From an uncultured Methanosarcinaceae archaeon (lineage in GTDB: Archaea; Halobacteriota; Methanosarcinia; Methanosarcinales; Methanosarcinaceae): a stretch of 64,000 nucleotides of DNA. The stretch spans positions 276,578-340,577 of the forward strand of contig CAWHXP010000008.1 in the NCBI GenBank assembly GCA_963833425.1, written 5' to 3'. The position numbers were made by a program, and so were the translations under genes. This document shows positions 1 through 64,000 of this stretch, one piece after another; position 1 is the stretch's first letter, and every line of letters starts with the position of its first letter. A model generated the notes under the pieces. It did no database searches, was not told the DNA's origin, and saw only the letters and a list, made by a program, of their open reading frames with translations.

Positions 1-1831
1 GCATTGTCGAACCTGCTGACAGATAGGCGATGTAATTTTTGTTGAAGGTATTTTGGTTCTCCTTGTACTGTTTAAAGATAGCAAGGGTTATTGCCTTTGA
101 AACAGCGTAATTGAAGGCGTAATAGTTGTTTGTCAAGTAAATATGGTTAATAAAGTCCCAGTCTCCGGAATCTTTAGTGTAGTACTCAACGGAGTCACTT
201 CTGTATTCTTTGGAGAGATTTGTCCAGAGAGCATTTAGTTCAGCTCCTCTAACGATCCCTTTTTCGGCACTCATCTGGTGTGCTTTATATTCAAATTCCG
301 TAATCAGAGGCTGCCTGGTAAAGTAATTTTGGTAATCCCCGATTTGGTTAGAAAGTACCATAATTGCAGTATCTTTATCAGAATTTTCGATCATATGATC
401 AACAAAGAGTTCTTCATTGAAAGTTGAAGGGACTTCCATTTCATATTCCGTACCTGAACAGTAGAGAAAATCAACAGAGTTACCCATCAGATAAAAATTA
501 ATCCCATGCCCAAGTTCATGAGTTATGGCCTTCTGATCATCTATAAGGCCATTATAGTTAATAAAAATTAAAGCTGGAGACCTAATGGCACAAAGGTCAT
601 TACAGTAGCTTCCGGGTTGTTTCCCATGTTCAGGATTTGGATATACATCTATGAAATTGCCAGTTACCATCTTTAAAAAGATTTCATTAAAACGTGGGTC
701 CATCTTGGAATAAGATTTCTGGATCTCCTGTAATGTATCAAAATAAGTATAATTTTTGCTAGGTTGATCCGTCAACTGCAACATGAGGTCATATGGCTTG
801 AGCTTTTCGAGTCCGAGTTTCGTTCTCCTGAACTCGTTATAATCTTCAAATACCCCTTTTCTTTCCTTGAAAACAGTGTTCATATCCGCTACTTGAGCTT
901 GGGTAAGATAGAGACTATAGAGACGTGATTCGTAAGAATTAGTGTAGTTCAGCTGTCTTGCACTGAGATCGTCAAGTCTGGCTTTTTCAGAATATAAAGA
1001 CGCCATAGAATCGGATTCGTTTATCAGATGGTAAAACCTCTTGTCATAACATTTTTTCCTATCTTCGCTTTTATTGTCTGTTGAAAGTAAAGTTTTATAA
1101 GACTGAGAATTGACTGAGAATTCCTTTCCGTCATCAAGAGTTATATTTCCTACCATCGTGATATTATTGGTGATCTCTGTAAGCGCCTTAGTTTCCAGTT
1201 TCATGCGCTGATTGTTGATATCTGCAAGATATGCTGCATGAGACTCATTCATTGGTCTGTGCTCAGCAAACCTCATGTAGGTAGCTTTAAGGTAGGGTCG
1301 ATATATCTCAAGGTTGGGCTCTTCAGAAAAAAGCTTATCCCACTCCTCTTTATGTAGAGAAGTCAACTTTACAGTTGCAAATGAGTCTGCTTTCTCGTGT
1401 TCGCTGCTCAGATTCTGAGAGTCCGAAAGAAGGGAAGCAAAGAACAGATCATTCATATTTTTACTGTTCTGAGTATATGCGTAAGTGTACAGAATTTCAA
1501 GCGATTTGAGAAACTCCTTTTCGGTTTCCAGGTATTCTAACAAAGTAGGCCCCGATAGATTCTCAAATTTCGAACGAAAAGTTTCATTTATCCTCTTGGA
1601 TCTTTTATTCAATGCCTCAAGTTCTTTTAAAGAATTTTCTCTACTTTTAAAGAGATAAGAATCATTCCATTTCGTTGTAATATTATTGGGATTAAGCTTT
1701 TCAAATGTATGATTTTTGCTTATAATTTCAGAATGTTTCTCTAGATCAGCAGAAACACTCATTATCGAAAAAACTGCACAAATTAGTAATATTTCAAGAA
1801 CTTCGGGCCCTTTAATTATTTTTCGTCTCAT
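1..1831 (-). CDS. M3B family oligoendopeptidase F-like zinc peptidase with signal peptide (3' end runs off the window)
   Basis: Not in the ORF track; translated by hand from ATG at 1831 (GAGGT SD upstream): MRRKIIKGPEVLEILLICAVFSIMSVSA..., KPYDL, HGKQPGSYC, zinc motif THELGH (~506-523), downstream EVPSTFNE. Confidence 0.9.
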   Translation of the reverse strand, partial: MRRKIIKGPEVLEILLICAVFSIMSVSADLEKHSEIISKNHTFEKLNPNNITTKWNDSYLFKSRENSLKELEALNKRSKRINETFRSKFENLSGPTLLEYLETEKEFLKSLEILYTYAYTQNSKNMNDLFFASLLSDSQNLSSEHEKADSFATVKLTSLHKEEWDKLFSEEPNLEIYRPYLKATYMRFAEHRPMNESHAAYLADINNQRMKLETKALTEITNNITMVGNITLDDGKEFSVNSQSYKTLLSTDNKSEDRKKCYDKRFYHLINESDSMASLYSEKARLDDLSARQLNYTNSYESRLYSLYLTQAQVADMNTVFKERKGVFEDYNEFRRTKLGLEKLKPYDLMLQLTDQPSKNYTYFDTLQEIQKSYSKMDPRFNEIFLKMVTGNFIDVYPNPEHGKQPGSYCNDLCAIRSPALIFINYNGLIDDQKAITHELGHGINFYLMGNSVDFLYCSGTEYEMEVPSTFNEELFVDHMIENSDKDTAIMVLSNQIGDYQNYFTRQPLITEFEYKAHQMSAEKGIVRGAELNALWTNLSKEYRSDSVEYYTKDSGDWDFINHIYLTNNYYAFNYAVSKAITLAIFKQYKENQNTFNKNYIAYLSAGSTM

Positions 1832-2583
1832 AAAAACCTCTACCCTATCTATTCCACATATAGCTTTTATTCCTTGTAATTTATATTGATTCAATGCCAT
1901 ATATTAATTTTCAGATGTGAAATTTAGACTGAATAGAGACGTTAACAAAGATGAATTTAGCTTGACTTTGTCAGATTAGCTTCTTTTTCCAAACTCAGCA
2001 CTTCGCTAAGAATCCCTCATCGATGTAAGGCCGATAAAGGATTATGAGACTTTTGATTATTTTATGATGTTTTTGAATAAGCTGTCCATGTTCTCTACAT
2101 CTGTGGGAGAATTCTCATACATCATCCGTTTCCAATTCTATTTATATTTCAATCTCATTTTGTTTATTTCCGATACACTCCTCAAATATACAGAATAAAT
2201 ATCATTAATAGTTTTGCCTGTGACTACATATTATATTTATGAATCTTAGTTTTGTTTAGTCCGTGGGTGCTGACCTTATAAGTTACTTCAATACATACTG
2301 AAAATTTATCTTTACCCTCACAGACTACAAAGAACTAAAATTAAAATATTTCCCTCCCATCACATCGTTAAAATCCGGTCAAGAGGGATTGAAGCATGAT
2401 TTGAATTGCTCGCATATGCATTATGAGTGATGATATAATATTTGTGAGATATAAACATATGAGAAGTATCGAAAAGATCAAAACATTATATATATCTTTA
2501 TATATAAATAATAATTATTTTTGTCTTCAAGTTGTTGAAAAAATGGCTTAGACGTATTGAGAATAGGTCTTGAAAAAAAATCC

Positions 2584-2668
2584 TGCGAAAGGTGCGATTC
2601 GAGCGCATGAACTCCAACGAGAATAGGCTCACAACCTATCGCCCTTGACCTGGCTGGGCAACCCTAGT
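2584..2668 (-). pseudogene. Degenerate tRNA-Leu-like gene (class II body; anticodon now reads GTG)
   Basis: Reverse complement ACTAGGG-TT-GCCC-AGCCAGGTCAA-GGGC-G-ATAGG-TTGTGAG-CCTAT-TCTCGTTGGAGTTC-ATGCG-CTCGAAT-CGCAC-CTTTCGC-A (85 nt). D and anticodon stems pair; acceptor stem has two mismatches, T-stem one, T-loop is CTCGAAT. Confidence 0.8.
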
Positions 2669-2696
2669 ATATATCGGTTACTTCTCAATAATATAT

Positions 2697-4900: not shown

Positions 4901-5563
4901 CTTTTAAACTTCATTCTTTATATACCCACAGAGAAGCCATTTTTTTAACCATAGAATAGTTAATAATACCAGAAGAAATGTTTACTTCTGGATAAATTGT
5001 TTCGTTAGCAGTGGGTTGATAGATTGATATAGGTCTTGTTACTAGAAATAGTCGTTTTCCAACTATTATTATATTTCTGGCCTGAAACATTGAATTTGCC
5101 GGAGAAAAATTTTCTTCAATTAAACTTAGTATTAAAGATCAAAGATAGAAATTTTAGGATGTCCAAAGGACTGTAATCTATTTTAAAATCGAGTGATTTT
5201 CAATTTTGCAACCGTTACTGAACATCGATTTTCTCTAAATAAAATCTGGAAATATTTTATAAAAATAAAAATATAATTTTTTTCAAATTAAAGTAAAAAT
5301 ATTAATAATTTGATCGAAACTAAGAATATATATATGTTTTTACTTTACAAATCTGCTATCAATGAGGATAATATAAATATAATATTTGTCAGTAAAAACT
5401 ATTGTCTCAGCATCCAATTTTTGTAGTTGGAGAATATGGATACAGAGATTCTCAGATTTTACAGAACTTCCCGTAAACTACCAAAAAAATCCTAGTAAAA
5501 AAGATCTGTTTATTATTGACGGTTCAATTTCCCGAAGGGAAAAAGGCAAATGACTGATTGTTT

Positions 5564-6550
5564 ATGGACGAGAATATCATACATGTAAATGACCTTGAGT
5601 ATTTTTTCGGCGAGGTGAAGACGGTCGATAACATCAATTTTACAGTTCGGGAAGGAGAGGTATTTTCTTTTCTCGGACCAAATGGAGCAGGGAAAAGTAC
5701 TGTGATCAATGTCCTTACTACTCTTCTGCCTATGCAGAAGGGAAACGTAAGTATTGCAGGGTATGATCTGAGAACACAGCCTGAAAAAGTGAGGGAGTCC
5801 ATAGGTATTGTTTTTCAGGAGACGACCCTTGACAGAAATATGACTGTGAGGGAGATCCTAGAATATCATGGAAGGCTCTATTCCATGCCAAAAACTGCAA
5901 GGCGGGTTCGAGTTGATGAACTGCTTGACTTGGTCGAGCTCGAAGGAAAACGTGATACTCTAACAAGGTATCTAAGCGGTGGAATGAAACGCAGGCTTGA
6001 GATCGCAAGAGGGCTTATGACGAAGCCGAGAGTGCTTTTCATGGACGAGCCTACACTAGGGCTCGACCTTCAGACAAGGATAAGGATTTGGGATTATGTA
6101 AAGGGTATTAACCAGCAAGGTACAACCGTTTTTTTAACAACCCATTATATGGATGAAGCTGATCATCTCAGTGATAGGATAAGCATTATAGATCATGGGA
6201 AGATAATTGTCGCGGGCAAGCCCTGGGAATTAAAAAACGCTCTTGGAAAGGATCTTATATACTTGGAAACTAGCGACAACTCGGGGGCCGGAGAACTGCT
6301 GAAGAAGCTAGGCAGTGTAAAAGGTATTAAGGAAAAAACGAAAGGGATAGTTGTTATGGTCAATGTGGATGGCACATATTTGCTTCCTGAGATCATGGAT
6401 GAGCTTCGAACTGGTGGGATTACAATCAAGGCCGTTAACCTAAAAAAACCATCAATAGATGATGTTTTTGTCCATTATACCGGGAGAGAATTAAGAGATG
6501 TAGAAACAGAAAAGGGTTATGAAGTATATTGGAAGGCAAGAGGACATTAA
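5564..6550 (+). CDS. DrrA-type ABC transporter ATP-binding protein
   Basis: Walker A GPNGAGKS, signature LSGGMKRR, Walker B LFMDEPT, H-loop TTHYM, C-terminal KPSIDDVFVHYTGR. Confidence 0.95.
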   Translation: MDENIIHVNDLEYFFGEVKTVDNINFTVREGEVFSFLGPNGAGKSTVINVLTTLLPMQKGNVSIAGYDLRTQPEKVRESIGIVFQETTLDRNMTVREILEYHGRLYSMPKTARRVRVDELLDLVELEGKRDTLTRYLSGGMKRRLEIARGLMTKPRVLFMDEPTLGLDLQTRIRIWDYVKGINQQGTTVFLTTHYMDEADHLSDRISIIDHGKIIVAGKPWELKNALGKDLIYLETSDNSGAGELLKKLGSVKGIKEKTKGIVVMVNVDGTYLLPEIMDELRTGGITIKAVNLKKPSIDDVFVHYTGRELRDVETEKGYEVYWKARGH

Positions 6551-6553: not shown

Positions 6554-7258
6554 ATGCATACCGGATTTCTTACTATTTATTGGCGAGAAATGCTAAGATT
6601 TGTCCGATTTCCAGCCCTGCTGTTCGCTACACTTATCCAGCCTGCCCTATGGCTAGCTTTTTTGGAATTGCAATGTCAAATAGTTTTGATAGGCTGCCAC
6701 CAACCTTGCCCCGATTCTAGGCATCAGGACGGTAGGCTTCCTGACCTTCATAGCTGCAGGCGTTATTGCCATGAACACGATTTTTACGAGCCTCTTAGGA
6801 GGAACTGTGTTGCTCTTCGGACTCTGATTGGATTCAAATTTTTTGAAGGTTACACTGAGCTACAGGTTTTTGTTTCATTGTTTGATTTATGCTTTTTATA
6901 GGGATATTTTCTCTCGGATTTATTTTTCTTTCAGTTGCGATCGCAATAACTATGGACAGTCCGGAATGTATGTGAACAGTAATAACTCTGCTTAATATAC
7001 CTTTCTTTTTCACGAGCAATGCACTTTACCCTGTGAACTTTTTCCCCCTATATTCAGAGCTCTGTCCGCAGTAAATCCACTAAATTATCTCATCAATGGG
7101 ATCAGATATTTCAAATAGGAAACGATTTCTCACCAATAGGAATCTATTACACTTATACTCAGGGAGAAGTTCTTGTTTCGTTTTTAGATCTTGGGGCTTT
7201 TGCAGGAATAATGCTTCTTGTTTCGCAGCGAAGATTGAACAAGGTTACCGTTTTATGA
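6554..7258 (+). pseudogene. ABC-2 type permease, multiply frameshifted
   Basis: Starts MHTGFLTIYWREMLRFVR...LIQPALWL; pieces such as LNIPFFFTSNALYP and AVNPLNYLING lie in different frames. Confidence 0.85.
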
Positions 7259-7427: not shown

Positions 7428-7966
7428 TTAGCAGATAGAAAAGACTGAATTCATTTCATCTATAGCAGGTGGATACGCTGGATTCTTATCAACAGTTATT
7501 ACTCTTGGAATTTGATTATGATTCGAACTTGAAGCTTTCTTAAAGAATCTCTTCGCCGCTTTTCGGTTTCGTTTTGCACTTAACATGAAATCGATTGTAT
7601 CTCCATTTAAGTCAACTGCTCGGTAAAAATATTTCCATTTACCTTGTACTTTGATATAGGTTTCATCAACTCTCCACGAATAGTTTGTGGGTCTGAAATG
7701 TCTTCTTATATTCTTTTCTATTTCAGGGGAATATTGATGCACTCATCTCATTATAGTACTGTGATCAACTTGAATTCCTCTTTCTATCATCATTTCCTTT
7801 AAATTTCTATAGCTCAGTAGGTATTTTAAGTACCATATCACCTTCAATAGGATAATTTCTCCTTCATAATGCTTCCATTTAAAGGAATTAGATAGCAATT
7901 ACTATCTATCTTTGGTTTTCTTTTTATTCTATTGTATCATTAGAAAGGATTTTTTGCAACGGAACC
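7428..7966 (-). mobile_element. IS6-family element remnant (one TIR plus truncated transposase)
   Basis: TIR GGTTCCGTTGCAAAA ending at 7966; FKWKHYEGEIILL...VDHSTIMR*VHQY (TGA at 7743-7745)...WRVDETYIKV...ITVDKNPAYP, then truncated; second TIR not seen. Confidence 0.9.
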
Positions 7967-7973
7967 GTCAATC

Positions 7974-8381
7974 CTAACGATTTCTTTTTAATTTAATTAA
8001 CACCTCTTTCATTGAAATGCGAGAAGAAGGCTCATGTGCAAATTCTGCTAATTGCTTTAGGCGTGATACTTTTTTCTTTATGGCTGCTTCTCTTAAGCTT
8101 AACAGCGAAGAACCAATCGTAATAAAGTGATTTCGATCAGTACCTGGAGTGTACTGCACGAGATCAAAAGCGGGATAGGATCCTCCACGAGCAAAAGCTA
8201 CTATTGAGGGGTCTGAACAGATCTGATCACCGATGTGATTTCGATTTTTAAAATGAGGTTCATTATCATATCCTTCGATCTCTATGTCCAGATGGTACAT
8301 TTTACCAGAAGAAGACATAGGGCACTCAAATTCGCCCCAATAATAGATTAAGTCATTTTCATGCCCTGCTTTGGTACTCAT
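7974..8381 (-). CDS. Hypothetical protein, probably 5'-truncated or chimeric
   Basis: 135-aa ORF with no recognised motif; its ATG overlaps a gene fragment on the opposite strand (8363-8680). Confidence 0.45.
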   Translation of the reverse strand: MSTKAGHENDLIYYWGEFECPMSSSGKMYHLDIEIEGYDNEPHFKNRNHIGDQICSDPSIVAFARGGSYPAFDLVQYTPGTDRNHFITIGSSLLSLREAAIKKKVSRLKQLAEFAHEPSSRISMKEVLIKLKRNR

Positions 8382-8680
8382 ATACAGATTTCAATGAGTG
8401 TATATGGATACCAAGACAAGACCAATATCAAGAAATCTGTATAAACTTTTTTGCACATAATCTTCGATTATCGAGACATGACGCATTCTCACGATTTTTG
8501 GAATGGTACTTCAGTTGCCTTAAAGAGACCGCTGAAACAGGGATAAATTATGTGAATAATGGCAAATATGAATATATTGATTCGTGTGACGAGTTGATGT
8601 TGTTATATACTATGAGTATGTTGCACGGTAAAAAATGGGAAGGGGAAAACTGGGTAAGGTCAGTTCTTGGGTATTATTAG
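8363..8680 (+). pseudogene. 5'-truncated hypothetical protein, paralog of 54770-55006
   Basis: Open frame ALLWYSYTDFNECIWIPRQDQYQEICINFF...HGKKWEGENWVR; CIWIPRQDQYQEICINFF aligns with CIWLPRQNQLQEISIEFF near 54860. Confidence 0.75.
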
Positions 8681-8923
8681 TGCGAGTTCTCGCTCAATCA
8701 TTCTGTCACAATTTGGCACTCCAACCGAACTCTCGGAAACGTTCGACGAACTTCTCAGGTTATCGCCAAGGTAAATAACGGCTTGTCCATGCAAAGGCCG
8801 TGAGACTCTGTCATCAGGTGACCAGAAATTTATAAAGGTAAATCGAAATCCTTTATAAAAGTTAAAATAAACCAGGAGCTGAAAGTAAAAAGAAATTGTA
8901 AGAGAGATTTCAGTTTCAGTATT

Positions 8924-10021
8924 TCAAGTAAACTCGTAGTTGCACCTGCCTCCCTCAGGATCAAAACATCGATTACAGGATACACACATTGCCCTTTTAG
9001 CTTTCCCAAACTTAAGTTTCGAGACAAGATCTGGCTCGCAGATTAATGGCCTACTCATGGAAACCAAATCTGCAAACCCTCCTTCAAGCAGATTTTTCAT
9101 AACAGAAAGGGACCGAATGCCCCCTACAAGCATTACAGGGATATTTACTGCTTTTTTTATTGCTTTAGAATATTCTCTAAAATATGCTTCTTCAACAGGA
9201 GAATTAATTGCGGTTCTTACGGTTGCTTCCCCTGCCTCACTTATCCCTCCACTAACTTCAATTGAGCACACTCCAGCTTTCTCCAGAAGTTTTGCAGTCT
9301 CCATAACTTGCAAAATAGTAATTCCAAGCTCTGTTTTTTGCGAACCCGGCTTGAAACCATCCGTTGCATTCAATTTGACAAAAATAGGGAAATCAGCTCC
9401 AGCTAGTTCTTTTATTCGCTTGACAATCTCTGTTACTATTCTTGCTCTGTTTTCCACTGAGCCACCCCAGTGATCAGCTCTTCTATTTGTATATGGGGAA
9501 ATGAAATTACTTAAAAGGAAGCCATGGGCACAATGGAGCTGTACGCCGTCAAAACCTGCTTTTTTTGCCCGGATAGCTGCTTTTGTAAAGGCCTCAATTA
9601 CTTCCAGTATTTCCTGTTCAGTCATTTCCCTAGGTACAACTCCCGAGAATTCATCTTTGATTTCTGAAGGAGCCATAGGGACCGGGTATTCTTCAGAAAT
9701 TGCTGCCTGCCTCCCTCCATGCACTATCTGAAGTACAATTTTGCTTCTGTACCTGTGCACCATTTCGGTTATCTTCATATAGGGTTCAATAAAACGATCA
9801 TCATAGATTCCTTGCTGGTAAATCACACTCTGGCCACTAGGAAGTACATAAGAAAATCCTGTTATGATCAACCCGACGTCATTTTTTGCAAGTTCCTCGT
9901 AGAGATTCCCTAACTTTGAAGTGGGCTTTCCATCTTTTTCAGCCATGGATTCATGTGTTGCGGCTCTTACAAATCGATTCTTGAGATCCATGTTGCATAA
10001 GGTGATTGGATCAAAAATCAT
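8924..10021 (-). CDS. NADH:flavin oxidoreductase (old yellow enzyme family)
   Basis: LKNRFVRAATHE, LQIVHGGRQ, AGFDGVQLHCAHGFLLSNFISPYTNRRADHWGGSVENRAR, C-terminal CVSCNRC; start set at MIFDP. Confidence 0.95.
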   Translation of the reverse strand: MIFDPITLCNMDLKNRFVRAATHESMAEKDGKPTSKLGNLYEELAKNDVGLIITGFSYVLPSGQSVIYQQGIYDDRFIEPYMKITEMVHRYRSKIVLQIVHGGRQAAISEEYPVPMAPSEIKDEFSGVVPREMTEQEILEVIEAFTKAAIRAKKAGFDGVQLHCAHGFLLSNFISPYTNRRADHWGGSVENRARIVTEIVKRIKELAGADFPIFVKLNATDGFKPGSQKTELGITILQVMETAKLLEKAGVCSIEVSGGISEAGEATVRTAINSPVEEAYFREYSKAIKKAVNIPVMLVGGIRSLSVMKNLLEGGFADLVSMSRPLICEPDLVSKLKFGKAKRAMCVSCNRCFDPEGGRCNYEFT

Positions 10022-10151
10022 GGAAAATAGTAAGAGAGAGCAGGATAAATAATTATCCAGCATTCCTAAAAAAGAAAGTTTTTACCCAATAATTTTTTGA
10101 TAACTCGATCATTCCATATAAGAAAATAGACTGAAGCCTTTTCCTACCCGC

Positions 10152-10629
10152 CAATAAATGACTTAATTTCAGTTCTACAGTAGGTTTCTAATTTTCCTTG
10201 GTGGACACCCATCCTACTCAAAAAAAGGCTTAATTAGTTCCACAATCTATCTTATGCTGCTTTATTAAATGAGCCTATGTGGCTAGGCTGATCTTAAATT
10301 TCAAAAAAGTTGATCTTGTAGCTGCAGGGGGTCCTTGCCTGCAGCTGAGAGAATGCCCAAGTAAAGGTTCCAGAAAACCTTTGAATTAAAACTAGATTTA
10401 ATTTTATATATATTTTTTGCATATATTCTAAATAATACTAACCTAAACTAATTAGTAATTGAAATTACGTATTCCATATCTCGTAATTGTAGCATAAGAT
10501 AACGTTCAATGTTAGTCAATAAATGACTTAATCTCAGGTCCTACAACAGACTGATAATTAATTCTAAGTGAATACCTAACTCACTTGAGAAAGTGCCATA
10601 AATCGCCCCACAAACGCTCTTCTCCTGCT
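10152..10629. repeat. Two degenerate ~110-bp direct repeats (10152-10261, 10517-10629)
   Basis: Both begin CAATAAATGACTTAAT.TCAG and end CCACAA.C..TCTT.T.CTGCT; a third homolog lies on the opposite strand at ~53190-53295. Confidence 0.7.
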
Positions 10630-10990
10630 CTAGATATTACCAGAATTCGTGTTTTATTATGTTTTTTTAAATTATTATATTTGAATTTTTATTATTTTAA
10701 AGTAATATAAGTATATAAAAAAAATCTCATGGGTACTTACCGTGCAAATCCGGCAAAATATGGGGATTCAGTTTTGTCGAAAAACGACTTGTTCTCAGGC
10801 TACTTGTGAGACTTTTATTGAGAGTTTCATGTAAAAATCATTGCTCTGCTTAGAAAATGTCTCTAACGACCTTATAATGGCTCATATTTGAATTGACGCC
10901 TATAAACCTCGCTTCTATGCAAAATAAAACGAACTAAATATTAAATACAAGACTAACTAATATTAATTGTAAAGTAAAAACGGTGAACTT

Positions 10991-11080
10991 ATGGCACGCC
11001 CTTGTAAATTAACTCCTAAAATACAACAACGAATCGATGAAAATATTGCGTTAGAACTCACATATTCTTGGGCTGCCTGA
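10991..11080 (+). pseudogene. Truncated terminase-small-subunit-like HTH gene, paralog of 52660-52981
   Basis: MARPCKLTPKIQQRIDENIALELTYSWAA* aligns with MARPSKLTPNITQLIGENVVLGMTYGLAA; the ~90 bp upstream of both genes is also homologous. Confidence 0.75.
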
Positions 11081-12410: not shown

Positions 12411-13324
12411 ATGTATTGGCTTATTTATGCATTTTCCGGGCCCGTTATGTGGGCGCTATCCACGCACGTCGATAAGTATCTGTTGGAGCGCTATTTCAAA
12501 CAGGGAAGCGTCGCGGTGCTGATGGTCTTTACTGCGATCATCGGTGCTCTTGCCTTGCCCTTTGTCTGGCTTTTCCAGCCTGGTGTAGTTGCATTGGACC
12601 ATGAATCTATGGCAGTCATAGCAGCTTCGGGAATCCTTTACATGAGTGCGATCTATTTCTACCTCCAGGCATTGCAGACTGAGGAGGCATCGACGATCGC
12701 ACCATTCTTCCAAGCGGCAGGAGTCTTCGGGCTTATCCTGGGATATTTATTCCTTGGGGAACAAATTTCTTATTCCCAAATCATGGGCGTTTTGCTGATC
12801 ATTGCTGGATCGGTTATCCTTTCTTTGAGGTTTGGGCAAGGCACCAGCCACGTTAAAAAACAGCTGTTTATTTTGATGCTTTTTTGTGCCCTGGCGATTT
12901 CGCTGAGTTCGCTTATTTTTAAATTCTTTGCTGTACGTGATGAATTCTGGACCACCACTTTCTGGAACTTCTTTGGCCAGGCATTGTTTGGAGTGATTTT
13001 AATGTTGGCTGCCGAAAACCGCAAACAATTTTCAGAGATGATTCATGCCAATGCAGGAGCTTTGCTTTCTGTGAATATAGCAAATGAATTGATTAACACC
13101 TTGGTGGCAACCTAGGTGTGAGCTACACGCTTCTTCTAGCGCCCCTGGGAATCGTGCAGACTATTTCCAGTACAACTTCGTTTTTCGTTCTCTTCTTCGG
13201 CGTCATCCTTTCTCTCTTTTTCCCGAATCTCGCAAGAGAGGAGATCAGCATTAGCGGCCTCATGCAAAAAATCATAGCCACTATCCTTGTTGTTGCTGGA
13301 GTTCTATTGATTAACCTGCAATAG
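12411..13324 (+). pseudogene. EamA/DMT family transporter, frameshifted near 13098
   Basis: Hydrophobic multi-TM ORF with EEASTIAPFFQ...LGYLFLGEQIS; the C-terminal part (LGGNLGVSYTLLLAPLGIVQ...) is in a shifted frame. Confidence 0.85.
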
Positions 13325-41000: not shown

Positions 41001-41194
41001 ACAATAACCTCTTCCTTTATCACGAAATATTTACTTCATTTATTTTTTTATCAATTATAAATGTTTGTAATTCAAGAAAACAATGAGTTTATAACAATAT
41101 AAATGGTTACGAAATAGAATTAAGAAATGTATGTGTGGTCATCTCGGTATTTCTGATGATTTTGTCCCAGCATTTCTCCATTTTTGATAGAATA

Positions 41195-47268: not shown

Positions 47269-48057
47269 AATATAATTTCACTCACATACTCCTAAAATTA
47301 GAATTTTTTTCGTTTCTTTTAGATATCCATAAAGGGATTAGCTTGGAAGTGTATTTAAATCTCAATATCATCCAAGCTAGTTTATTTACTTACTTTCTTT
47401 GAGTTTTGATTATATTATTTTTGTATATTCATACCTGACTTCTATTATTTAGTCCAGTCAAAGAGCCGACAGATTTCTGCAGGACTGGAAACTTCTTCTA
47501 GCATCGGGATAAAATTTTAGAAGAAAATGGAATCATCAATTTTGTTAGATCCTTATATTCGAAGTTAATAAGAGGTATTGCTTTGAGTTTAGTATAACAT
47601 TTAGTGATAGTGATCATGTGAGCTTTTCGTTGGTTTAGACCAAAATAATCTTCTTCAAGAGTTATGAGGATCATAAGAAGTATCACAGAAAAATAAAATA
47701 ATACTTTGAGATTAAAAAACGATCTTGAGGTTAGGAACTTGGGGGATGATAGAGGTTACATTAGTAACTGTGGTGATGGGACAACTTCCGATCTAATTTA
47801 AAAAGTATGTTGGGACTATGGGAAACCATGCATAAAAAAATACATATAATCAAAATTATGCGAATGTAAATGTATTCTATTATTCGGTTGCCTATTTCCC
47901 CACTTTATTCATTGAAATTTAGATTAATTTTTAAGCTACTGTCACATTAAGAAAATGGATGACATTTTTGTATAAGTCTTCAAAAAAATGGACAAAACAA
48001 CTTTGATTAATAACATCCACCGATAATTTTAAAAATAGATTTTCTGATTCTTACATC

Positions 48058-50835: not shown

Positions 50836-51865
50836 ATGTCGCAACTCAACTAAAGTTCATCATTCCTGGCCTATAACGAGGAAACCTCCGTTGCGGAAAC
50901 TGTGAGAAGCGTGCTTGAGCAGACATGTCCTCCAGCAAGAGTGATCGTTGTAGATGACTGTTCCACAGATAGGACTGGAGAATTGGCAAGTCAGGCAGGT
51001 GCTGAGGTCATAAGGCCACCGAAGAACACAGGCTCCAAGGCAGGCGCTCAGAATTATGCCTTGCAATTAACTGATACCAAGTATACTATGGCAATAGATG
51101 CCGATACTACACTTGCTCCTGACGGCATAGAAAAACTCATTTCACCACTTGAGAATGAAGAGGTGGCTGCATCCTGTGGCTTCGTCATCCCAAGATATAT
51201 CAGCACCATTTGGGAACGAGGTCGATATATAGAATATCTTCTCGCTTTCACTTTCTACAAGCCGACTCAGGACTATTACGGCAAGCCAATAATGTCTTCA
51301 GGTTGCTTTTCGGCCTACAACACTGACAAGTTGAAGGAGATTGGTGGCTGGTCTGAACGTACCAGGGCGGAAGACATGTACTTGACCTGGAGCTTCTATG
51401 AGGTTGGCTACAAAGTTCGCTTTATTCCAGAAGCTGTTTGCTACCCGCTCGAGCCCCACAATTTCAACTTCATGAGCAAGCAGTTGAAGCGCTGGTCTCA
51501 CGGGTTTGTGCAGGAATGTACGGCTCCACTGGAGAAAGATCCTCAGATTACCGCTACTTAGCTCCATTGTAGGGATTTCCATGTGGGATGCAATCATAGC
51601 TTCAATTACATATCTGATATTACTTCCCATACTTGTGATATTTCTTAAGAATCCTTTTTTACTGCTTTTTTACATAATTGATCTTCCGACTATTCTCTTT
51701 CCGGTTATGGTAAAAGCGATTCAAAGGAAAGAGTTTTTTAGGGTTTTAGTTTCAATTGCTTGTTTTTTCATACTCAGAACTGTCAACGCCATATTTATGC
51801 TTGAAGCCATCTGGACGGACTATATACTTAATAAACCTCTCTTAGTTTATGAAAAAGGACACTAA
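50836..51865 (+). pseudogene. GT2 family membrane glycosyltransferase, frameshifted
   Basis: IIP/AYNEE broken near 50867; VVDDCSTD, IDADT, AED, QLKRW motifs; second frameshift near 51510 before the TM tail. Confidence 0.85.
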
Positions 51866-54259: not shown

Positions 54260-54688
54260 ATGCCAAAAAAAATTAGTACGTCCATAAACACTAATATTTA
54301 TGGCAAACATTGGTATTTTGAAATTCCAGCTGATGACTTAGACCGTGCGAAGCGCTTCTACCACTCCCTGCTCGGGTGGAAGATTGAACCGACCAAAGCT
54401 CCTGTCCCTGATACATTGATGCGGTATCAGGATATCGTAACAGGAGATTCAAATGTAGGTACTCCTATGGGTGGTACTCTCAGCATGGGTGGGATGCATA
54501 AGCGGAGGATGAACGAGTCAATCGTCAACTATGTGATGGTAGACGATATCGACGAAAAGATTACGACGGTAGAGAAACTGGGAGGAAAGATCGCCGTACA
54601 AAAACGGGAATTAGAGTTCTTGGGGCAGTTTGTGATCATCCAAGACACCGAAGGAAACGTCATAGCTCTCTTCAAGCCAAAAATGTAG
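54260..54688 (+). CDS. VOC/glyoxalase family protein (native start at 54300 appears frameshifted)
   Basis: YFEIPADDLDRAKRFY..LLGW, NYVMVDDID, GGKI, QDTEGNVIAL; ATG GCA AAC ATT at 54300 is out of frame with the body of the gene. Confidence 0.8.
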   Translation: MPKKISTSINTNIYGKHWYFEIPADDLDRAKRFYHSLLGWKIEPTKAPVPDTLMRYQDIVTGDSNVGTPMGGTLSMGGMHKRRMNESIVNYVMVDDIDEKITTVEKLGGKIAVQKRELEFLGQFVIIQDTEGNVIALFKPKM

Positions 54689-54769: not shown

Positions 54770-55006
54770 AAAGCTTCATATTCTAACATATCCATATTCC
54801 GCATAAAGAATTCGATGCTTATCTCTTGAAGCTGATTCTGTCTCGGTAACCAGATACACTTGCTCACATCTTTTGTAATATGCCACTACCACACGCTTGC
54901 GGCACCGTCTATAACATCATAAACATAATCCCCGTTTCATAGCCCCACTTGTGCTGTATTTTCTTTGCGAGAGCACATATTCTAATGACTTTTCTGAGAG
55001 GTCCAT
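54770..55006 (-). pseudogene. 3'-truncated hypothetical protein, paralog of 8363-8680
   Basis: MDLSEK / ICALAKKIQHKW / SVW*WHITKDVSKCIWLPRQNQLQEISIEFFMRNMDMLEYEAFLH, with frameshift and stop. Confidence 0.7.
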
Positions 55007-55182
55007 GTCAATCATTCTCGAAATGAATTATTGAGTTATAGGTTAAAAGGAAACTCCGAGTTATGTGAAAGTATTCAAAGCGGAATAGTTCAGGATAAAG
55101 CACAACATTTAAGAATTTCTTTACAATTAACCTCATTCATGATGATTTTAAATTGATCTTACAAGAAAGAGGCATATACTGC

Positions 55183-55886
55183 ATGTGTGGAGCGTATGGA
55201 TTTTCAATAAAAAACATAAAAGATGTGTATGATAGGTTTTTTATAGAAAATACTTTAGAGAATTTTAAACCAAGATGGAACATCAGCCCAGGACAATTAA
55301 ATCCTTTATCGTCAATCACGAGAAAAAGGAAATTGATTTGATTTTTTGGGGACTACTCCCTAATTTTGCCGAAGATGAGCATTATAAATACAAAGCGATA
55401 AATGCTAAAGCTGAAACATTTGATAAATTGCCTACATTCCGCCAACCGTTTCTTCATAAACGTTGTTTTATCCCAGCGATAGGGTTTTACGAACCAGATC
55501 AGATTCATTTTTTAAAAAATCCCTTCCAGTGGCACTATTTCCAGATGAAAGACCATTCAATTTTTGCCTTTGCTGGGCTGTATGACGTTTGGAAAGATAA
55601 AAAGAACATGAAAGAAATCCATAACTACACGATCATTACTACAATACCTAATACGACTGTTGGCAAATATCATGATAGAATGCCTGTTATTTTAGAAAAA
55701 GAGGATGAAGACGTATGGTTGAATCCTGATATTGTTGAAGCGGATCAGCTTTGCCCCTTATTGAAGCCCTTGCCTGACGAAAAAATTGAAGAATGGGAAG
55801 TTGGAGATGAAGCAAGAAATCCAAGAAACGATTATCCAGAAGTTATTGAGCCATTTAAAACCAACAGGCAAAGAAGCTCATTCTAG
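55183..55886 (+). pseudogene. SOS response-associated peptidase (SRAP/YedK/HMCES), frameshifted near 55303
   Basis: N-terminal MCG, RWNISPGQ, then WGLLP, INAKAET, RCFIPAIGFYE, FAGLYD, YHDRMPVIL in another frame. Confidence 0.9.
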
Positions 55887-56048
55887 TAATTTTTTATTAC
55901 TGTAGAATCTACGAAGGATAGAGATTTATGGTTCCGACAGTAGCTGGAAAAATACTCTCCTCGTTGACTTGACAGAACCAAAAAATAAATCCTGAATACT
56001 TTCACCTAACTCCCTTTAACCTTATGATCTTTTATAATCTGATATTTC

Positions 56049-57157
56049 ATGATGCTTGCTCTCAATCCTAAAGCAAACAATACCGACAGGTGGATAGTTC
56101 TTCATGTAGATATGGACAGTTTTTTTGCGTCCGTGGAGGTCAGGGAAATGCCAGGAATAAAAGGACTGCCTGTTGTGGTGGGTTCTGACCCTAAAGGGGG
56201 GTCAGGCAGAGGAGTTGTAAGCACCTGTTCTTACGAGGCACGAAAATACGGAATTCATTCGGCAATGCCAATTTCACAGGCATATAAACTCTGTCCTGAG
56301 GCTGTCTTTTTGCCTGTCAACATGAAAGCTTTATGCACAGGTTTCGGCAAACGTAATGGAGATCATGAAAGGGTTTGCTGAGAAGTTTCAGCAGGCGAGT
56401 GTTGATGAAGCCTATCTAGTGCCAGGACCTGAGATAAAGAGTTTTGAAGAGGCTGCAATTTGTGCTCTCAAGATCAAAGATGAAGTTCAACGTCAGGAAA
56501 GAATTACATGTTCAGTTGGAGTCGGACCGAATAAGCTTATTGAAAAGATCGCTTCAGGTTTTCAGAAACCGGATGGTCTTACAGTTGTTCGACCTGAAGA
56601 TGTCAGATACTTTTTTTTCGCTAAACGTCTCAAAAATCCCTGGAATAGGTGAAAAAACAACAGAATCCCTAAAATTGATGGGGATAACCAAAGCTGAGTA
56701 GCTAGCAAGCTGTGATATCCATAGGCTTTCTGAAAGGTTCGGGAAAATGGGGCTCTGGATGAAGCAGGTGGCGTATGGTCTAGATTTCAGTGAAGTAAAG
56801 GAATGGGAGGAAGCGGTAAAGTCAATAAGCAGGAGTGGGACATTTGAGGAGGATACAAACGATCCTGTAAAAATTGCTGGCTTTCTGGAAATGCTTGCTG
56901 AGAGTGTTCATAGAGCTCTCCTAAGAGATAGTTTTCTTTTCAAAAAAGTAAATCTTAAAGTTCGCTATTAAGACTTTTCCACATATACACGCTCAAAGAC
57001 TATCCCAGTCTGGACTTCGGATATCTTCGTGATTAAAAGGACAGCGATTCAGCTCCTTTCGGAGTTTATTGGAAGTCAAAAGTTTAGACTTGTTGGTGTG
57101 GGGGTTACAAAACTTAGGGAAAGAGACGAGAGGGAAACCCTGATTACAGATTTCTAA
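56049..57157 (+). pseudogene. dinB: DNA polymerase IV (Y family), several frameshifts and stops
   Basis: [57 protein letters not shown]-box-like ETLITDF; TAG at 56699, TAA at 56969. Confidence 0.93.
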
Positions 57158-57797
57158 AAATCCAGTTTTCGAATGGAAACCCCGGGGTTATATAAATATA
57201 AATATCTTTTATAAGTTTAGTTAATTCTTCCTATATTGTTATGCACGTTACTACCTATCCACTACAGCTCACACGACAACTTTAGACTAACTTTTTATCC
57301 CTATCGAAGGCTTACAAACAAATTTTTGCGCACTATACCCTTGCGCATTTTTTCAGGTAAACCCTTAGATGGGTTTTTAACTTAGTCCATACTTGTAGCA
57401 TGGCTATGTTCCGCTATAGAAAAACCAGCAAAACTAAGTTGGTCCAAAGTTGGTTCAGGTTCCGATATATTATAGGAATCATTATGATTCTTGCCTTTGA
57501 GTGCTATTTCCTGGTAATGAGACTGATTAACTTTCTAATTGTGAAGCTTTACACTGATTTTGCAACAAAGCCAGATTTTTTGCACGACAACCAGTTTAAG
57601 GAAAGAATTTCCAAAGTACTTAGAAAAACATAACCTTGGATATCGATATCATACAGCTATCTGGGCTTCAATTAATCTACTATTGGATAAACACAGTGAA
57701 AAATACTTTTTTATTCAACTTAATAAATGGGTTGTGGTGCAAAAATCTCTTTATGAATCTCCAAAACACAGGTGATATGCTCGTTTTTTATATTTGA

Positions 57798-58020
57798 TCA
57801 ATGACTCACAGAAACGATTAATTTATGGTAAATTTGAAATGTCTTATGATAAGGTTCATCACCCACATACCTTTTCCATTCCTCTGGTGTGAGATTCCGG
57901 GTTAAATGATTGCTGATTTCGTTTATAAGATCTTCGGTATTAATTATCCACAGCTTTGCGGTTTTGTCATTACTCGCCGTAGCGAAGTATTTCCCATCCC
58001 CGTAGCAAGATGCTGTATTC
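57798..58020 (-). pseudogene. C-terminal fragment of a WD40-repeat protein
   Basis: DGKYFATASNDKTAKLW followed by DLINE...LTRNLTPEEWKRYVGDEPY. Confidence 0.75.
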
Positions 58021-58477
58021 AACTGAAATAAATTGATACTTTTTAAACCAATTTTTGTATTTTTGGTTCAGAAAGCGCCATATTACTCTAGTTTAGGATA
58101 AAAATACAAACCAAAAAACTACAATAGCTGAATTTAGATATTATATGCATCTGACGGATTTATGATTTAATTTATTAAGTCATTTGGAGCAGAATCCCAT
58201 ATTTCGCAAATGAAACAAAATGTATCTATTTTCGTAATATGAAACGCTTAAAAACAGATTTATACTTCAATAATAATAATAGTAGGCAAATAGGAACCCA
58301 ATTTATAAGCATGCATAGCATCCGTAGAAAGTCGGCAAAATTACTGCAAAAGCTAAATATCCACACACTTTTCTCAGAAGCCGTATAAAAAAAGAATCTG
58401 AAAAATCAGTAAAAGACTAGAGAATCGTCAGAAAAGACAAAAGCCAGGTAAAAAGTGTAAAAACAGAGTGCAAAATT

Positions 58478-59708: not shown

Positions 59709-60634
59709 ATGACTGTGATTGAAACTAGAAAGATAACAAAAGTACTGAAGAGCAAACTCACGAATGAAGGAGCCGGTGTCCATCTCAAAAGGGCATTTGG
59801 GTTCAGCCAGGTCCCCCTGTTCGACCCCTTTTTGCTCCTTGATGATTTTAGAGGTCCGATAATCCAGAGCATATCTCAAAGGGTTTCCCTGGCATCCTCA
59901 TCGTGGTATAGAGACGATTACCTATGTTCTTCGTGGTGACGTAGAACATGGGGACAGTATGGGAAATAAGGGAATTATTTCATCAGGTGACGTACAATGG
60001 ATGACTGCAGGAAGCGGAATCACCACCAGGAATTGCCTAAAGGAGATTTTAACGGCTCTATGTACGGATTTCAACTATGGACTAATCTCCCAAAATCCCA
60101 CAAAATGATGGAGCCACACTATCGGGACTTAAAAGTGATCAAATCCCAATAGTGTCGCTAGAGAATGGCACGAAAACAAGGGTCAATTGTGGAAGTGTGG
60201 GGGATAGAAAAGGGCCTGTGCAAGACATAGTCACCGATCCGGAATATCTGGATATAATCGTACCAGCTGGATTGGAATTTTCTCATCCTACAAAGCGCAG
60301 ACACACAGTTTTGGTTTATGTTATCGAGGGGAAAGGTTACTTCTGCGAGGAAAAGAAACCATTTTCCTACGAGATTGAAGGCATCAATTATTTCGACATG
60401 AAGCAAGATCCCTATCTAGAAAACGGAGATCTGGTCTTCTTTTGAGATGGGGATCAAGTTATGGTCTCAACTGAAGGAGAGCATGTCAGACTCCTGCTAA
60501 TATCAGGAAAGCCTGTCGTTGAACCGGTTGCTTGGTACGGCCCTATTGTAATGAACACGCAAGACGAGTTGCGAATTGCTTTTGAGGAATTCGACAATGG
60601 AACGTTTATTAAGAAGCATAAGAGATCTTATTGA
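59709..60634 (+). pseudogene. Pirin family protein, multiply frameshifted
   Basis: [64 protein letters not shown] in different frames. Confidence 0.92.
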
Positions 60635-60669: not shown

Positions 60670-61100
60670 TGAATAGGCATATAGTAGGCCTCATGTAGTT
60701 TGTACTAGATGTGACTCCAGAGGAGTTTAAAAATAACGTCGCGGATTAGGCAAAGCACAAAGGTTTCAAGTATTCCTGTACTCTTAACTACAGTGTATAA
60801 GGGGTCAAACGGCACTATTCTTGCTGAATTGGAGTATTACCCCGAGACAGAGGTTAATCGTTGTCCAAGCAATTATAGACGCCAGTCGAGCAGTGAGTTA
60901 TCTGGAACACGAGGCTACAATAGCAATTTTTGTCCAGACGAGCTTGAATATACGTAACTGGTGGTCAATTGCTGCAGAACTTCAAGCAGATTCGCTTAGA
61001 GATGAATCAGAAGGATGGCTTTACGTTATGGTTTTAGAAAGTATTTGCCTAGCTGGGATCGCTTACTTGATACTGCAACGGTTTTAGGGACCTGAAAGAT
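60670..61100 (+). pseudogene. YcaC-like isochorismatase family remnant
   Basis: VGLM*FVLDVTPEEFKNNV, IPVLLTT, IIDAS...EHEA...NWWSIAAELQAD fragments. Confidence 0.55.
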
Positions 61101-61369
61101 GATACCTACATAACGAGGTAATGGCAGAATCACAAGCAATAATTTCTTTAGGGCTTACTCATTTGAGGAGCTTAACGAGAAACATAAAAGTTTGTGTAAC
61201 GGTGGTATATTTGAAATAGATTGACATTTTACGCCATGATTTTGTAACTCAACCCTAAGTTCTAATGAAACTGAAAAGTTCCCTGCAAAATAAGTGACTG
61301 TGAAGTTTAATTTTTTTCACTTTTTGATAAGTCCTCTAAGCTTCATTAAATCAAAAATAAGGCAAAATA

Positions 61370-61853
61370 ATGTCCCTCAAAGGCTCACAACAGTTGTTTG
61401 CATTATTTTTTGCAATTCATTTTGCCATGATTATAGATCGTTCCCGCGAAATGTACAAACCCTGGGATACATACTATGCGTGAAGAGGAAAATCTCATAA
61501 TATTAAGTGTTTACTAACAACATGGGTATTTTATTTCTCATGCCACTATTCCATTTTGCAATCTTATTTGTTCTTCTGAATCAGCGAATATTCAATTCGA
61601 TATGACTATCAGAGACGTATCAAGTGTTTCTCTAATAGGCCTTAGTTTATTTTTCGATTTTGGTTATTTCAGAATGTATAAAGGCTTTTTGCATAGATTT
61701 CCAGAATCTTTTTTCACAGGTGAAGATAGAATGACAGCGGCCTGTTAGATAAGATCCGTCCGAATTTTAGGGCCATTTTATGCCTTGCGCTTTGTACGTG
61801 CCCCTATCCACTTTGGTGATGTTGATAGCAGTTTATCATTATGATACAACTTA
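61370..61853 (+). pseudogene. Hypothetical membrane protein remnant
   Basis: MSLKGSQQLFALFFAIHFAMII...WDTYYA*RGK, further hydrophobic segments in shifted frames. Confidence 0.5.
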
Positions 61854-62520: not shown

Positions 62521-63222
62521 ATGCTGAAGATTATGGGGTCAAAAATGGAAACTAAAGGACATTTCGTCTTGCTAGGGTACGGAGATGTTGGGAAAAGCAT
62601 CGTAAAAGTACTTTCAGGAGGACCTTTTTGTTTCGTGGTTGTAGACTCCAATGAAAAAGTTTTTGATAATGTAGACTTTGAGTATTTAATTGGCGATGGA
62701 TCAGATGAAGAGATACTGATTAAAGCCGGAGTAAAAACTGCTTCTTTCGTTTTTGTGGTCCTTAATGACGATACAAATGTTATTTTTGCAACCCTTATTT
62801 CTAGGGGTCTTAATCCGGAAGTCACTATCGTGGCAAGGGCAAATTCCGTTAAATCTATAGACAAGATTTACAAGGCCGGAGCAGACTATGTAGGATCTCT
62901 TTCCATAGTAGCCGGCCAGATGATTGCCAAAATGACTGCAAATTGTGTAGGAAAAAGCTGTAGAATCGACGAGGATATAATGCTTTATGAGGGCATCGAA
63001 ATTGAAAAGCATCGCGTTGAAAAGGGTTCGTTCCTTGAAAATAAATTAATAGAAGACCTCGATCTCGAAAAAAAGATCGGATGCACTATTATAGGCATTG
63101 GAAGGGAAAAACTTGTTATCACTGCCATTACAAGGCAAACAGCTATTAAGGCCGGAGATACGATCGCAGTTGTGGGAAGCAATAAACAGATTTCAGAATT
63201 TAAGGAAAGATACCTCGAGTAA
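62521..63222 (+). CDS. TrkA/RCK domain protein (TrkA-N + TrkA-C)
   Basis: LGYGDVG, GDGSDEEILIKAGV, IVARAN, AGADYV, GDTIAVVG; true start may be 62533 or 62545. Confidence 0.9.
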   Translation: MLKIMGSKMETKGHFVLLGYGDVGKSIVKVLSGGPFCFVVVDSNEKVFDNVDFEYLIGDGSDEEILIKAGVKTASFVFVVLNDDTNVIFATLISRGLNPEVTIVARANSVKSIDKIYKAGADYVGSLSIVAGQMIAKMTANCVGKSCRIDEDIMLYEGIEIEKHRVEKGSFLENKLIEDLDLEKKIGCTIIGIGREKLVITAITRQTAIKAGDTIAVVGSNKQISEFKERYLE

Positions 63223-63455
63223 AGTCTGTTTTCTATAATTCTTATTTAGTTTTGAGGAAGGAATATAATCAATTTTCCGTAGATGTGCCTAGATTGCCAT
63301 CGATTTCCTCTATAGGACAGTAACTTAAAATTTAATCTGACTTTCTATAGCTGATAGTAGCTGAATAAACAAATAAATTATACATTTGTGAAAGTCTGAT
63401 CGATTACTCGAAAAAAGTATAAATGTAAAAATTTTCAAGCTTGAGGTGTGATAAT

Positions 63456-64000
63456 ATGGAGAGTTTGTCTACAGGAATTGAAGGGTTGGATGTCTTAATG
63501 GATGGAGGGTATCCTAAAGGAAAGGGGATTCTTATAACTGGTCCTCCTGGTGCTGGAAAAACTATTCTTGGACTTCACTTTCTGCATAGAAGCTGCCATG
63601 AAGGCAGGAGATGTATTTTGATTCTGACGAGGGAACTCACTGAAGACGTCCTCAGTCAATCCCGAAGCATAAAACTTGACCTCGAACCTTTTTTGGAGAG
63701 CGGACTGCTTAGTATAAGGAATATCTTTGAGGACAAGATGAATAAAATTAAATTAGTTTCCAAGTTCGGTAAAGGACTCTGCTCTGTGGACACAGACATA
63801 ATAGAGTATCTCAGCGCAATGTCTTCGGAAGTTGATGTCGTAGTTATTGATACCATTGGGGTCTTGGCTATAAATAACGATATAAAAGAGTTTGCAGATG
63901 AATTTAGCTCTATAAGCATAATTCTTCTGAAAAACGGATGTACAAGCCTCTTTATTATGGACGAAGCCTCTTATAACCTGACCCACCGACTTGCCGGCTA
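63456..64000 (+). CDS. KaiC/RAD55-like RecA-superfamily ATPase (runs off the window)
   Basis: Hand translation MESLSTGIEGLDVLMDGGYPKG...GPPGAGKT...VVVIDT; GAGGTG SD. Confidence 0.9.
   Translation, partial: MESLSTGIEGLDVLMDGGYPKGKGILITGPPGAGKTILGLHFLHRSCHEGRRCILILTRELTEDVLSQSRSIKLDLEPFLESGLLSIRNIFEDKMNKIKLVSKFGKGLCSVDTDIIEYLSAMSSEVDVVVIDTIGVLAINNDIKEFADEFSSISIILLKNGCTSLFIMDEASYNLTHRLAG

Follow-up and report, generated by a model that had tools for sequence, protein, structure and literature searches.

Related Methanosarcina genomes share an old, genome-wide low coding density

Why would a methanogen genome be strewn with broken genes while its core genes stay open? The question is raised by a stretch of 64,000 nucleotides (hereafter the window; contig C8:276578-340577) from the Methanosarcina genome G000, which comprises 4.07 Mb in 21 contigs with a GC content of ~0.36 and is 80% complete and 1.35% contaminated. 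A first-pass annotation of the window had proposed selective genome erosion, caused by relaxed selection or drift as in a recently host-restricted or bottlenecked lineage. We find that G000 belongs to a clade of six genomes that combines low coding density in all members, shared gene losses, an approximately twofold higher dN/dS (nonsynonymous relative to synonymous change), old insertion sequence (IS) copies and an AT-biased decay toward a GC content of ~0.3.

Methanogenesis marker 14, MptA and RaSEA as well as genus-wide GatA matches put G000 within a set of 59 genomes of one genus, which is taken to be Methanosarcina because among 14 control genomes only M. acetivorans matched the MtaB, MtmB and surface-layer (S-layer) families. 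The comparison set consisted of these 59 genomes, with G000 and its five sisters forming one clade and 53 others outside it. A related-locus search with GatA as query listed 80 unrelated taxa, Methanosarcina not being among them. As a proxy of coding density we used the share of DNA under open reading frames (ORFs) of at least 100 aa, and the complete genome of the relative G061 served as reference, sampled in 84 tiles (1.68 of 3.69 Mb). ORF cover of G000 was 0.488 genome-wide with all 63 tiles falling within 0.35-0.60, which rules out that the window, at 0.434, is merely a local decay zone. With the same 20-kb method density reached 0.484 in G000 (191 tiles) versus 0.720 in G061 (84 tiles), and gaps longer than 1 kb made up 37% of G000 as compared to 9% of the G061 sample. 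The genome-wide comparison with relatives that had been recommended for the window thus returned low density throughout (0.49 versus 0.72) and confirmed a broad pseudogene load. Protein homology was detected at 934 non-ORF loci of G000, 338 of which lie in repeats of at least eight copies, and 89 TGA, 79 TAA and 46 TAG in-frame stops in the aligned broken loci of the genome bear out the nonsense lesions that had been read from the window.

Is this state peculiar to G000? GatA of G019, G055, G064, G065 and G067 is 94-95% identical to that of G000, as opposed to 86-90% in all other genomes of the genus, and a tree of 13 genes unites these six genomes in one clade with 100% support. At the gat locus, density was 0.43-0.58 in the five sisters versus 0.69-0.79 in six other species. 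G064 had a density of 0.542 over 520 kb, two further tiles of G019 gave 0.49 and 0.38, and the near outgroup G062 reached 0.82 on 12 kb. Clade genomes measure 2.9-4.1 Mb. Five metagenome contigs showed densities of 0.46-0.61, three of them being independent; the other two, L253 and L256, match G055 and G019 at 99.7-100% identity and hence do not count separately. Logan contigs from five bulk metagenome runs, three of which are labelled peat, cover 28-30 of 30 window bins at ~90-96% identity, filler included, and short-read contigs are collinear with the window through non-coding filler, e.g. at 15678-17455. At this identity the Logan contigs represent relatives of another strain, which are unable to confirm lesions private to G000. 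The short-read comparison comprises five runs (X1-X5) out of 20 sharing few words, the remaining 15, including permafrost and soil rows, providing no evidence. Taken together, the low density is real, genome-wide, clade-wide and old. Of note, the tip branch of G000 at four-fold sites measures 0.17 versus 0.04-0.06 in its sisters (3-4 times longer); either G000 evolves faster or the root within the clade, which has support 74, is misplaced.

Long-read indel errors or a changed stop codon could make a genome look broken, and errors do exist in G000. The essential or conserved genes rps15, GatE, LeuS, PriL, ThrC, TiaS and CobQ are broken by +1 insertions, mostly outside homopolymers (four in LeuS, two in PriL), and AckA is frameshifted as well; G019 and G064 have an intact LeuS (it was not found in G065 and G067), and four of four sisters an intact AckA. 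The +1 insertions in essential genes are best read as assembly errors, and error patches were located at C7:297000-330000, C11:64000-72000, C12:46000-50000, C3:415000 and C2:49000-58000. Frameshifts from these patches need read support. DapL, cysteate synthase and UvrA likewise carry +1 insertions there. The hallmark of an artefact, that is indels striking essential and accessory genes alike and gone in other assemblies, was seen for ~5% of genes in patches, but the bulk of the low density does not follow it. A reciprocal test took single-copy orthologs of at least 200 aa and counted lesions inside the 20-90% stretch of their length. By this count 198 of 213 sister orthologs were intact in G000, ten carried indels only and five had nonsense codons; in the reverse direction G064 had 142 of 153 genes intact, and G019, G065 and G067 together had 49 of 52. 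Assembly errors are estimated to reach at most ~5% of G000 genes, corresponding to about one point of density. Moreover, genes are just as sparse in the five other assemblies and in three additional metagenome contigs, and the collinearity of short-read contigs through filler also speaks against an artefact. A recoded stop codon was ruled out, as reading through TAG or TGA added 0.02 to density versus 0.01-0.02 in the control. We consider it barely credible that an artefact accounts for the observed state. The possibility raised earlier that the lesions are assembly errors applies to a small share of genes outside the window and does not explain low density.

A comparison of 1,165 G061 ORFs with G000 found 430 intact, 102 broken and three mixed; the other 630 had no counterpart at 55% identity, although 58 of them have a match at 40-55%; the 102 broken genes are an upper bound that takes in assembly errors and some misclassified genes. 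Only two of 84 G061 genes that are intact in the G064 sample lack a copy in G000, which shows that most absences are clade-wide.

Which functions have been lost? FpoD was detected in none of the six clade genomes versus 45 of the 53 others, MtmB in none versus 46 and archaellin in none versus 42. PylS was found in none of five clade genomes searched, MtbB had no match in G000, FpoL and FpoH gave only paralog matches of 26-29% in this genome, and no tRNA with a CUA anticodon was present among 53 tRNA calls. MtaB, which is matched in 52 of 53 others and mostly in three copies, survives intact in G019 as a single copy; G065 has it split, G000 keeps a fragment, and it was not found in the remaining three. 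A scan of 229 of the 372 longer G061 proteins missing from G000 revealed absence of chemotaxis proteins, aldehyde oxidoreductases, many transporters, sensor kinases, PKD surface proteins and a restriction system. Cas1 is missing from all six clade genomes and present in 41 of 53 others, but G061 and G062, two near outgroups, lack it too, and CRISPR loss was discarded as a mark of the clade.

Other systems were kept. AckA is intact in four, CdhA in three, FwdA in five and McrA in three of five clade genomes; in G000 AckA is frameshifted and cdhA was not found, both likely assembly faults. NiFe hydrogenase large subunits are open in four of four clade genomes searched. Judged by subunit lengths, these are presumably Vht, Frh and Ech, the last label resting additionally on a cluster with 26-36% Fpo-paralog matches. 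Acetoclastic Ack and Cdh together with putative Ech are present at the level of the clade. M. barkeri is a Methanosarcina of the Ech/Frh/Vht type, which the clade resembles in having Ack, Cdh, Ech-, Frh- and Vht-sized hydrogenases, Fwd/Fmd, Mcr and the S-layer; it differs from this type in that FpoD, PylS, MtmB and archaellin were not found and MtaB is mostly lost. Joint loss of Fpo and methylamine use is coherent, because M. acetivorans cannot do without Fpo on trimethylamine, whereas on acetate its Fpo is low (PMC12918732). A permafrost-peat study reports mtxB in five of eleven Methanosarcinales metagenome-assembled genomes, for methanol or methoxy compounds only and transcribed (PMC10805028); this pattern resembles that of the clade, to which those genomes may belong.

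Several genome maintenance and biosynthesis genes were also examined. MutS is open in all six genomes (one partial, 830 aa), ruling out a mutator through MutS loss, and RadA is full-length in four of five genomes, the fifth copy being truncated where its contig ends. The S-layer protein of 675-682 aa is intact, as are argB, guaAB and mptA in the window. trpA is intact in three of five genomes and missing from G000 and G065 along with the linked topo VIB; Trp auxotrophy was not supported as a sign of host dependence, given the three intact sister copies and the likely gap that includes topo VIB in G000. A bacterial-type alternate F1F0 ATPase was additionally noted, intact in G019 (L250:11401-14912) and, apart from small indels, also in G000 (C12:46590-50000).

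To what extent has selection changed? NG86, a simple counting method, yielded dN/dS values of 0.11-0.17 in six pairs within the clade versus 0.05-0.09 in eleven outside pairs. For matched genes dN/dS was 0.112 versus 0.058 (ratio 1.92, confidence interval 1.52-2.43, n=11), and the matched-gene ratio was 1.6-3.3 in 20 of 20 contrasts of 4-14 genes each, with intervals above 1. Purifying selection in the clade is still strong, with dN/dS exceeding 0.5 in only three of 224 genes between G064 and G000. Old multi-copy DNA outside long ORFs accounted for 9.9-10.3% of G000 versus 1.1% of G061 in equal 1.68-Mb samples, an approximately ninefold difference, and the same measure gave 7.0% for G064 versus 0.3% for G061. 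The earlier suggestion of relaxed selection or drift is thus supported, both by dN/dS of core genes and by the amount of dead multi-copy DNA.

The same cannot be said for recent host restriction. In host-restricted bacteria such as Sodalis, Serratia symbiotica and Mycobacterium leprae, about half of the genome is non-coding, with many pseudogenes and IS copies, a retained core and raised dN/dS. The clade is like these cases in its very low density, its many pseudogenes and IS copies, its kept core and its raised dN/dS. It is unlike recent decay in that six species at dS 0.2-0.3 share the state, IS copies are old, MutS and RadA are intact and no host is known. A restriction or bottleneck of the G000 lineage alone, at the stage of Sodalis or Serratia symbiotica, would fit the long G000 tip and the fact that some lesions are private to this genome. 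Yet the state is common to all five sisters, status differences between sisters are few, orthologs are mostly intact in both directions, the S-layer is kept and bulk peat metagenomes contain near relatives. Young, lineage-private pseudogenes are not the pattern. A remnant of a 387-396 aa F420 oxidoreductase of the FrhB/FpoF family at 39105-39692 (minus strand), which the first-pass annotation had not listed, belongs to a gene that is intact in G006, G007, G013 and G061 and broken in six of six clade genomes; it is an ancestral pseudogene of the clade, its family assignment not implying FpoF identity. Likewise, no burst of near-identical IS copies was seen in four IS families and the sampled repeats of G000. 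Copies in the main families differ from their consensus by a median of 6.6-7% in three sets (two of them IS6-type and overlapping) and 18% in the fourth, and the closest copies in four families are 96.6-97.6% identical to the consensus, none being nearer than 2.4%. Only 19 repeat pairs in G000 are at least 98.5% identical over at least 400 bp, and repeats of at least three copies at 98% or more make up 0.4% of sampled G000 DNA versus 0.8% in G061. The clade therefore fails three tested marks of recent decay, namely young private pseudogenes, a young IS burst and loss of repair (judged by MutS and RadA), and we regard recent restriction of G000 as very improbable.

What, then, fills the non-coding half? 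Among the 2.08 Mb of non-ORF DNA in G000, 21% has homology to the protein sets compared, 48% consists of repeats and 52% falls under either class. DNA matching neither protein nor repeat amounts to 24.6% of the genome and has a GC content of 0.31. Dead IS copies decay with AT bias toward an equilibrium GC of 0.27-0.34 in the four main families. Within alignments small deletions exceed insertions by 1.6-2.9 to 1 in IS, with a net loss of 0.02-0.08 bp per substitution; counting truncations raises this figure to 1.2-4.7 bp at most. IS loci retaining at least 90% of their length at ~6.5% divergence numbered 39 of 77, 25 of 43, 45 of 68 and 59 of 66. G000 holds several copies of integrase, PolA and Prim-Pol genes, these families having 6-8 ORFs. 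The largest protein family of this genome has 63 ORFs of at least 120 aa (median 282 aa) and links to a disaggregatase-related surface protein. Salmonella clears young pseudogenes faster than expected under neutrality (PMC2916853); in the clade, relics outlive speciation.

One could suppose that much of the non-coding half is maintained and functional, as regulatory RNAs, spacers and recombination sites. Functional non-coding DNA has reportedly been proposed for the free-living Trichodesmium. The quarter of the genome devoid of gene or repeat matches would be in line with this, as would the alignment of 77-92% of sister-locus non-ORF DNA to G000. However, the spacer at 38.9-40.0 kb, the only one aligned across species, has 81-85% identity with many indels versus 88-90% in adjoining gene blocks, as expected of unconstrained DNA; the GC content of the unmatched quarter (0.31) coincides with the equilibrium toward which dead IS copies decay, and an Rfam scan of the window returned no match. 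Maintained function for much of this DNA is improbable on these grounds.

Our preferred reading, which we hold slightly more often than we doubt it, is that the six-species clade narrowed its niche and was subject to drift while clearing dead DNA slowly, and that it is likely free-living and non-motile in peat. The common ancestor would have narrowed to acetate and H2/CO2 and turned non-motile, rendering about half of the ancestral genes dispensable, which were then lost or broken. Selection would have weakened about twofold, and waves of IS and integrative elements would have added DNA that was cleared slowly, so that genome size held at 3-4 Mb while gene content dropped; little gene loss would have followed the split of the species. 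As the cause we favour, on balance, that effective population size is small, the habitat being patchy and dispersal-limited. We infer this cause, the order in which things happened, which substrates are used and that the cells live outside a host.

Several points weigh against this reading. Host-bound lineages likewise lose motility, chemotaxis and numerous transporters and sensors and show higher dN/dS and low GC, and the likely free-living peat life is deduced from genes and metagenomes. Gene absences were read from genomes that are 73-92% complete. Missing from G000 are cdh, mtrH, cofD, topo VI and trp genes, and the absence of cdh, mtrH, topo VI and trp most likely reflects assembly gaps. 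The pairs compared for dN/dS differ in depth (dS 0.28 versus 0.6-1.1), are not independent and comprise 4-14 genes, and the NG86 values are support, not proof. Surviving IS copies are a biased sample, as those removed in full leave no trace, and the loss rises once truncations are counted, which leaves slow deletion a presumption. The unmatched 24.6% leaves part of the presumed junk unexplained, and this part could be functional.

The main rival reading is an old host restriction, in which long life in or on a peat eukaryote (an anaerobic protist, a fungus or plant tissue) supplying H2 and acetate would have driven decay through transmission bottlenecks. Loss of archaellin, chemotaxis, transporters, sensors and methyl substrates and the twofold dN/dS agree with it, and diatom spheroid bodies provide a precedent: they show an old, stable low density (10.64898/2026.03.19.712447) made of degraded gene fragments, a GC content of 33-35% and a core under purifying selection, much as in the clade. 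The spheroid bodies differ in lacking intact transposases and in high synteny, whereas the clade is rich in IS and integrative elements, rearranged and known from DNA alone, and its genomes have not shrunken. PMC11287868 gives 65.8-68.3% coding (59.7% curated) for endosymbiotic Methanobrevibacter, and Ca. Methanobrevibacter cononymphae and sp. NOE share with the clade a raised number of pseudogenes (148 and 187 curated). Endosymbiotic methanogens, including the ciliate Methanocorpusculum (10.64898/2026.05.13.724943), belong however to other orders, have a demonstrated host and are 60-68% coding at 1.35-2.7 Mb versus ~50% at 3-4 Mb in the clade. Retention of the S-layer, MutS and RadA and of trpA in three of five genomes, and assembly of relatives from bulk peat DNA of at least three studies, also stand against a host, and Methanosarcina is not among the eight genera of ciliate endosymbionts listed in PMC12662959. 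All in all, old host restriction is unlikely but deserves to be taken seriously.

Among archaea in general, genomes are dense, as PMC7289037 describes, and the clade departs from that. Lyu et al. 2017 (PMC5655593) associate lower coding density with weaker purifying selection in archaea, as seen in the clade, and their archaea are ~70-95% coding, placing the clade ~20 points below. Our literature search found no paper on erosion of this clade, subscription papers being mostly outside its coverage.

Two other groups of genomes within the genus deserve mention. G009 (2.9 Mb, 150 contigs, 99% complete), which lies outside the clade by GatA identity, has no MtaB, MtmB, FpoD or Cas1 matches but kept archaellin; it is possibly a second, compact, non-methylotrophic Methanosarcina and would be the best control for the low-density finding. 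G005, G020 and G063 (few contigs, 77-84% complete) have split MtaB, FpoD or archaellin genes, with a gat locus density of 0.69 in G005, and these splits may be errors or may mark more decaying lineages.

The window itself contains 25 intact coding sequences with 23,432 bp (36.6%), in agreement with the ~24 kb tallied by the first-pass annotation. Intact are an M3/PepF oligoendopeptidase (2-1900, minus strand, extending past the window edge), an ABC ATPase (5558-6550, plus), RaSEA and GMP synthase guaAB (32287-34350, minus), gatCAB (35580-38897, minus), the group of marker 14, DUF2098, mptA, MC1 and argB (42763-48957), and TrkA with a KaiC-like ATPase (62521-64000, plus, also extending past the edge). 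The core genes that had been called uninterrupted, i.e. gatB, gatA, gatC, guaAB, marker 14, mptA, argB, RaSEA and DHH, are indeed single open frames here; the claim does not extend to G000 elsewhere, where essential genes are frameshifted. The glutaminase half guaAA was not identified within the window. A VOC ORF at 54260-54688 is intact. The segment 26943-30911 comprises an intact GH13 isoamylase-like gene and a 615-aa ORF without Pfam or NCBIfam match; its DNA has matches at 71-78% in 12 of 58 other genomes of the genus and in none of five sisters at E<=1e-50. A pentapeptide-repeat ORF at 40101-41000 belongs to a family of 16 such ORFs in G000, and a repeated element around a flavin oxidoreductase (8363-11080) occurs in 3-23 copies.

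Broken genes were sought in the window by scanning 150 of 715 stop-free fragments, picked by codon score. Eleven of 15 protein genes named as broken were verified by homology or Pfam (ABC permease, EamA, PLD, PfpI, GH13, WD40, pirin, YVTN/beta-propeller, GT2, SRAP and dinB), whereas the DUF422-like, VOC and PQQ-like relics could not be identified by family and the YcaC-like relic probably corresponds to a broken gene at 60678-61107, its family being left unnamed. The permease (6554-7252, plus strand) has 5-6 stops relative to paralogs, and at 6819-6825 Logan contigs have 131 letters where the window has five. The EamA transporter gene (12411-13321, plus, by homology) carries a 2-bp insertion at 13096 that is private to G000; the gene is intact with 303 aa in G064 and the insertion is missing in four of four runs. 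Since essential genes are frameshifted elsewhere in G000, such single-indel private lesions are not callable as real without source reads, and this one is an assembly error or a recent lesion. Further relics are a sensor-kinase fragment (19655-19791, minus), a PLD-family relic with three stops (24812-25021, minus), a PfpI/DJ-1 fragment covering profile positions 77-164 of 165 (26020-26391, plus), a GH13 fragment (31147-31317, plus), a beta-propeller relic with 4-7 stops (41157-41603, minus), which we take to be YVTN-like, a GT2 glycosyltransferase whose reading frame changes close to either end (50830-51865, plus), a WD40/beta-propeller fragment (57801-58067, minus) and a split pirin (59863-60631, plus). 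Two more broken genes follow at 60678-61839 (plus), the first, i.e. the putative YcaC-like one, with three stops and two frameshifts and the second with eight stops and two frameshifts.

IS remnants had been predicted correctly. An IS6/IS240-family remnant (7449-7976, minus) has 73 copies in G000 with a median of 6.6% from consensus, and a summed contig depth of 535-1378 versus ~4-11 over single-copy bins. An IS-like remnant of unnamed family (34529-35127, plus) has 132 matches in G000 and shows seven stops and two frameshifts relative to a paralog. As to the broken tRNAs, one case was found: the single ARAGORN call in the window, tRNA-His(gtg) at 2583-2669 (minus), is a decayed tRNA-Leu copy with 90% identity over 70 nt to tRNA-Leu(gag) and tRNA-Leu(cag), a 73-nt tRNA-His being located on contig C3. 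At 55275-57154 (plus) a decayed SRAP-dinB copy with three frameshifts is 95.4% identical at the nucleotide level to an intact copy on contig C13; the dinB genes differ by 24 nonsynonymous and 19 synonymous changes and two stop codons in 366 codons. This cassette (window 54770-57262) is present in up to five copies in G000, some of them intact and 92-99% alike, and has the appearance of a recently spread mutagenesis cassette.

Tentatively, and at slightly less than even odds, we propose that a widespread peat clade harbors the least coding-dense archaeal genomes known (~50%), having dropped pyrrolysine, Fpo, methylotrophy and motility and having held a junk-rich state over several speciations without shrinking; its members would live freely and experience drift on a scale like that of eukaryotes, or else be the first Methanosarcina restricted to a host, a peat eukaryote not yet seen. 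If a host exists, this would be a new archaeal symbiosis. The predicted physiology is growth on acetate and H2/CO2 via Ech, Frh and Vht, without Fpo or pyrrolysine, and labelling these organisms as versatile methylotrophs would mislead models of peat methane. With six genomes of ~50% density and a calibrated outgroup, the clade makes drift versus deletion bias directly testable in archaea.

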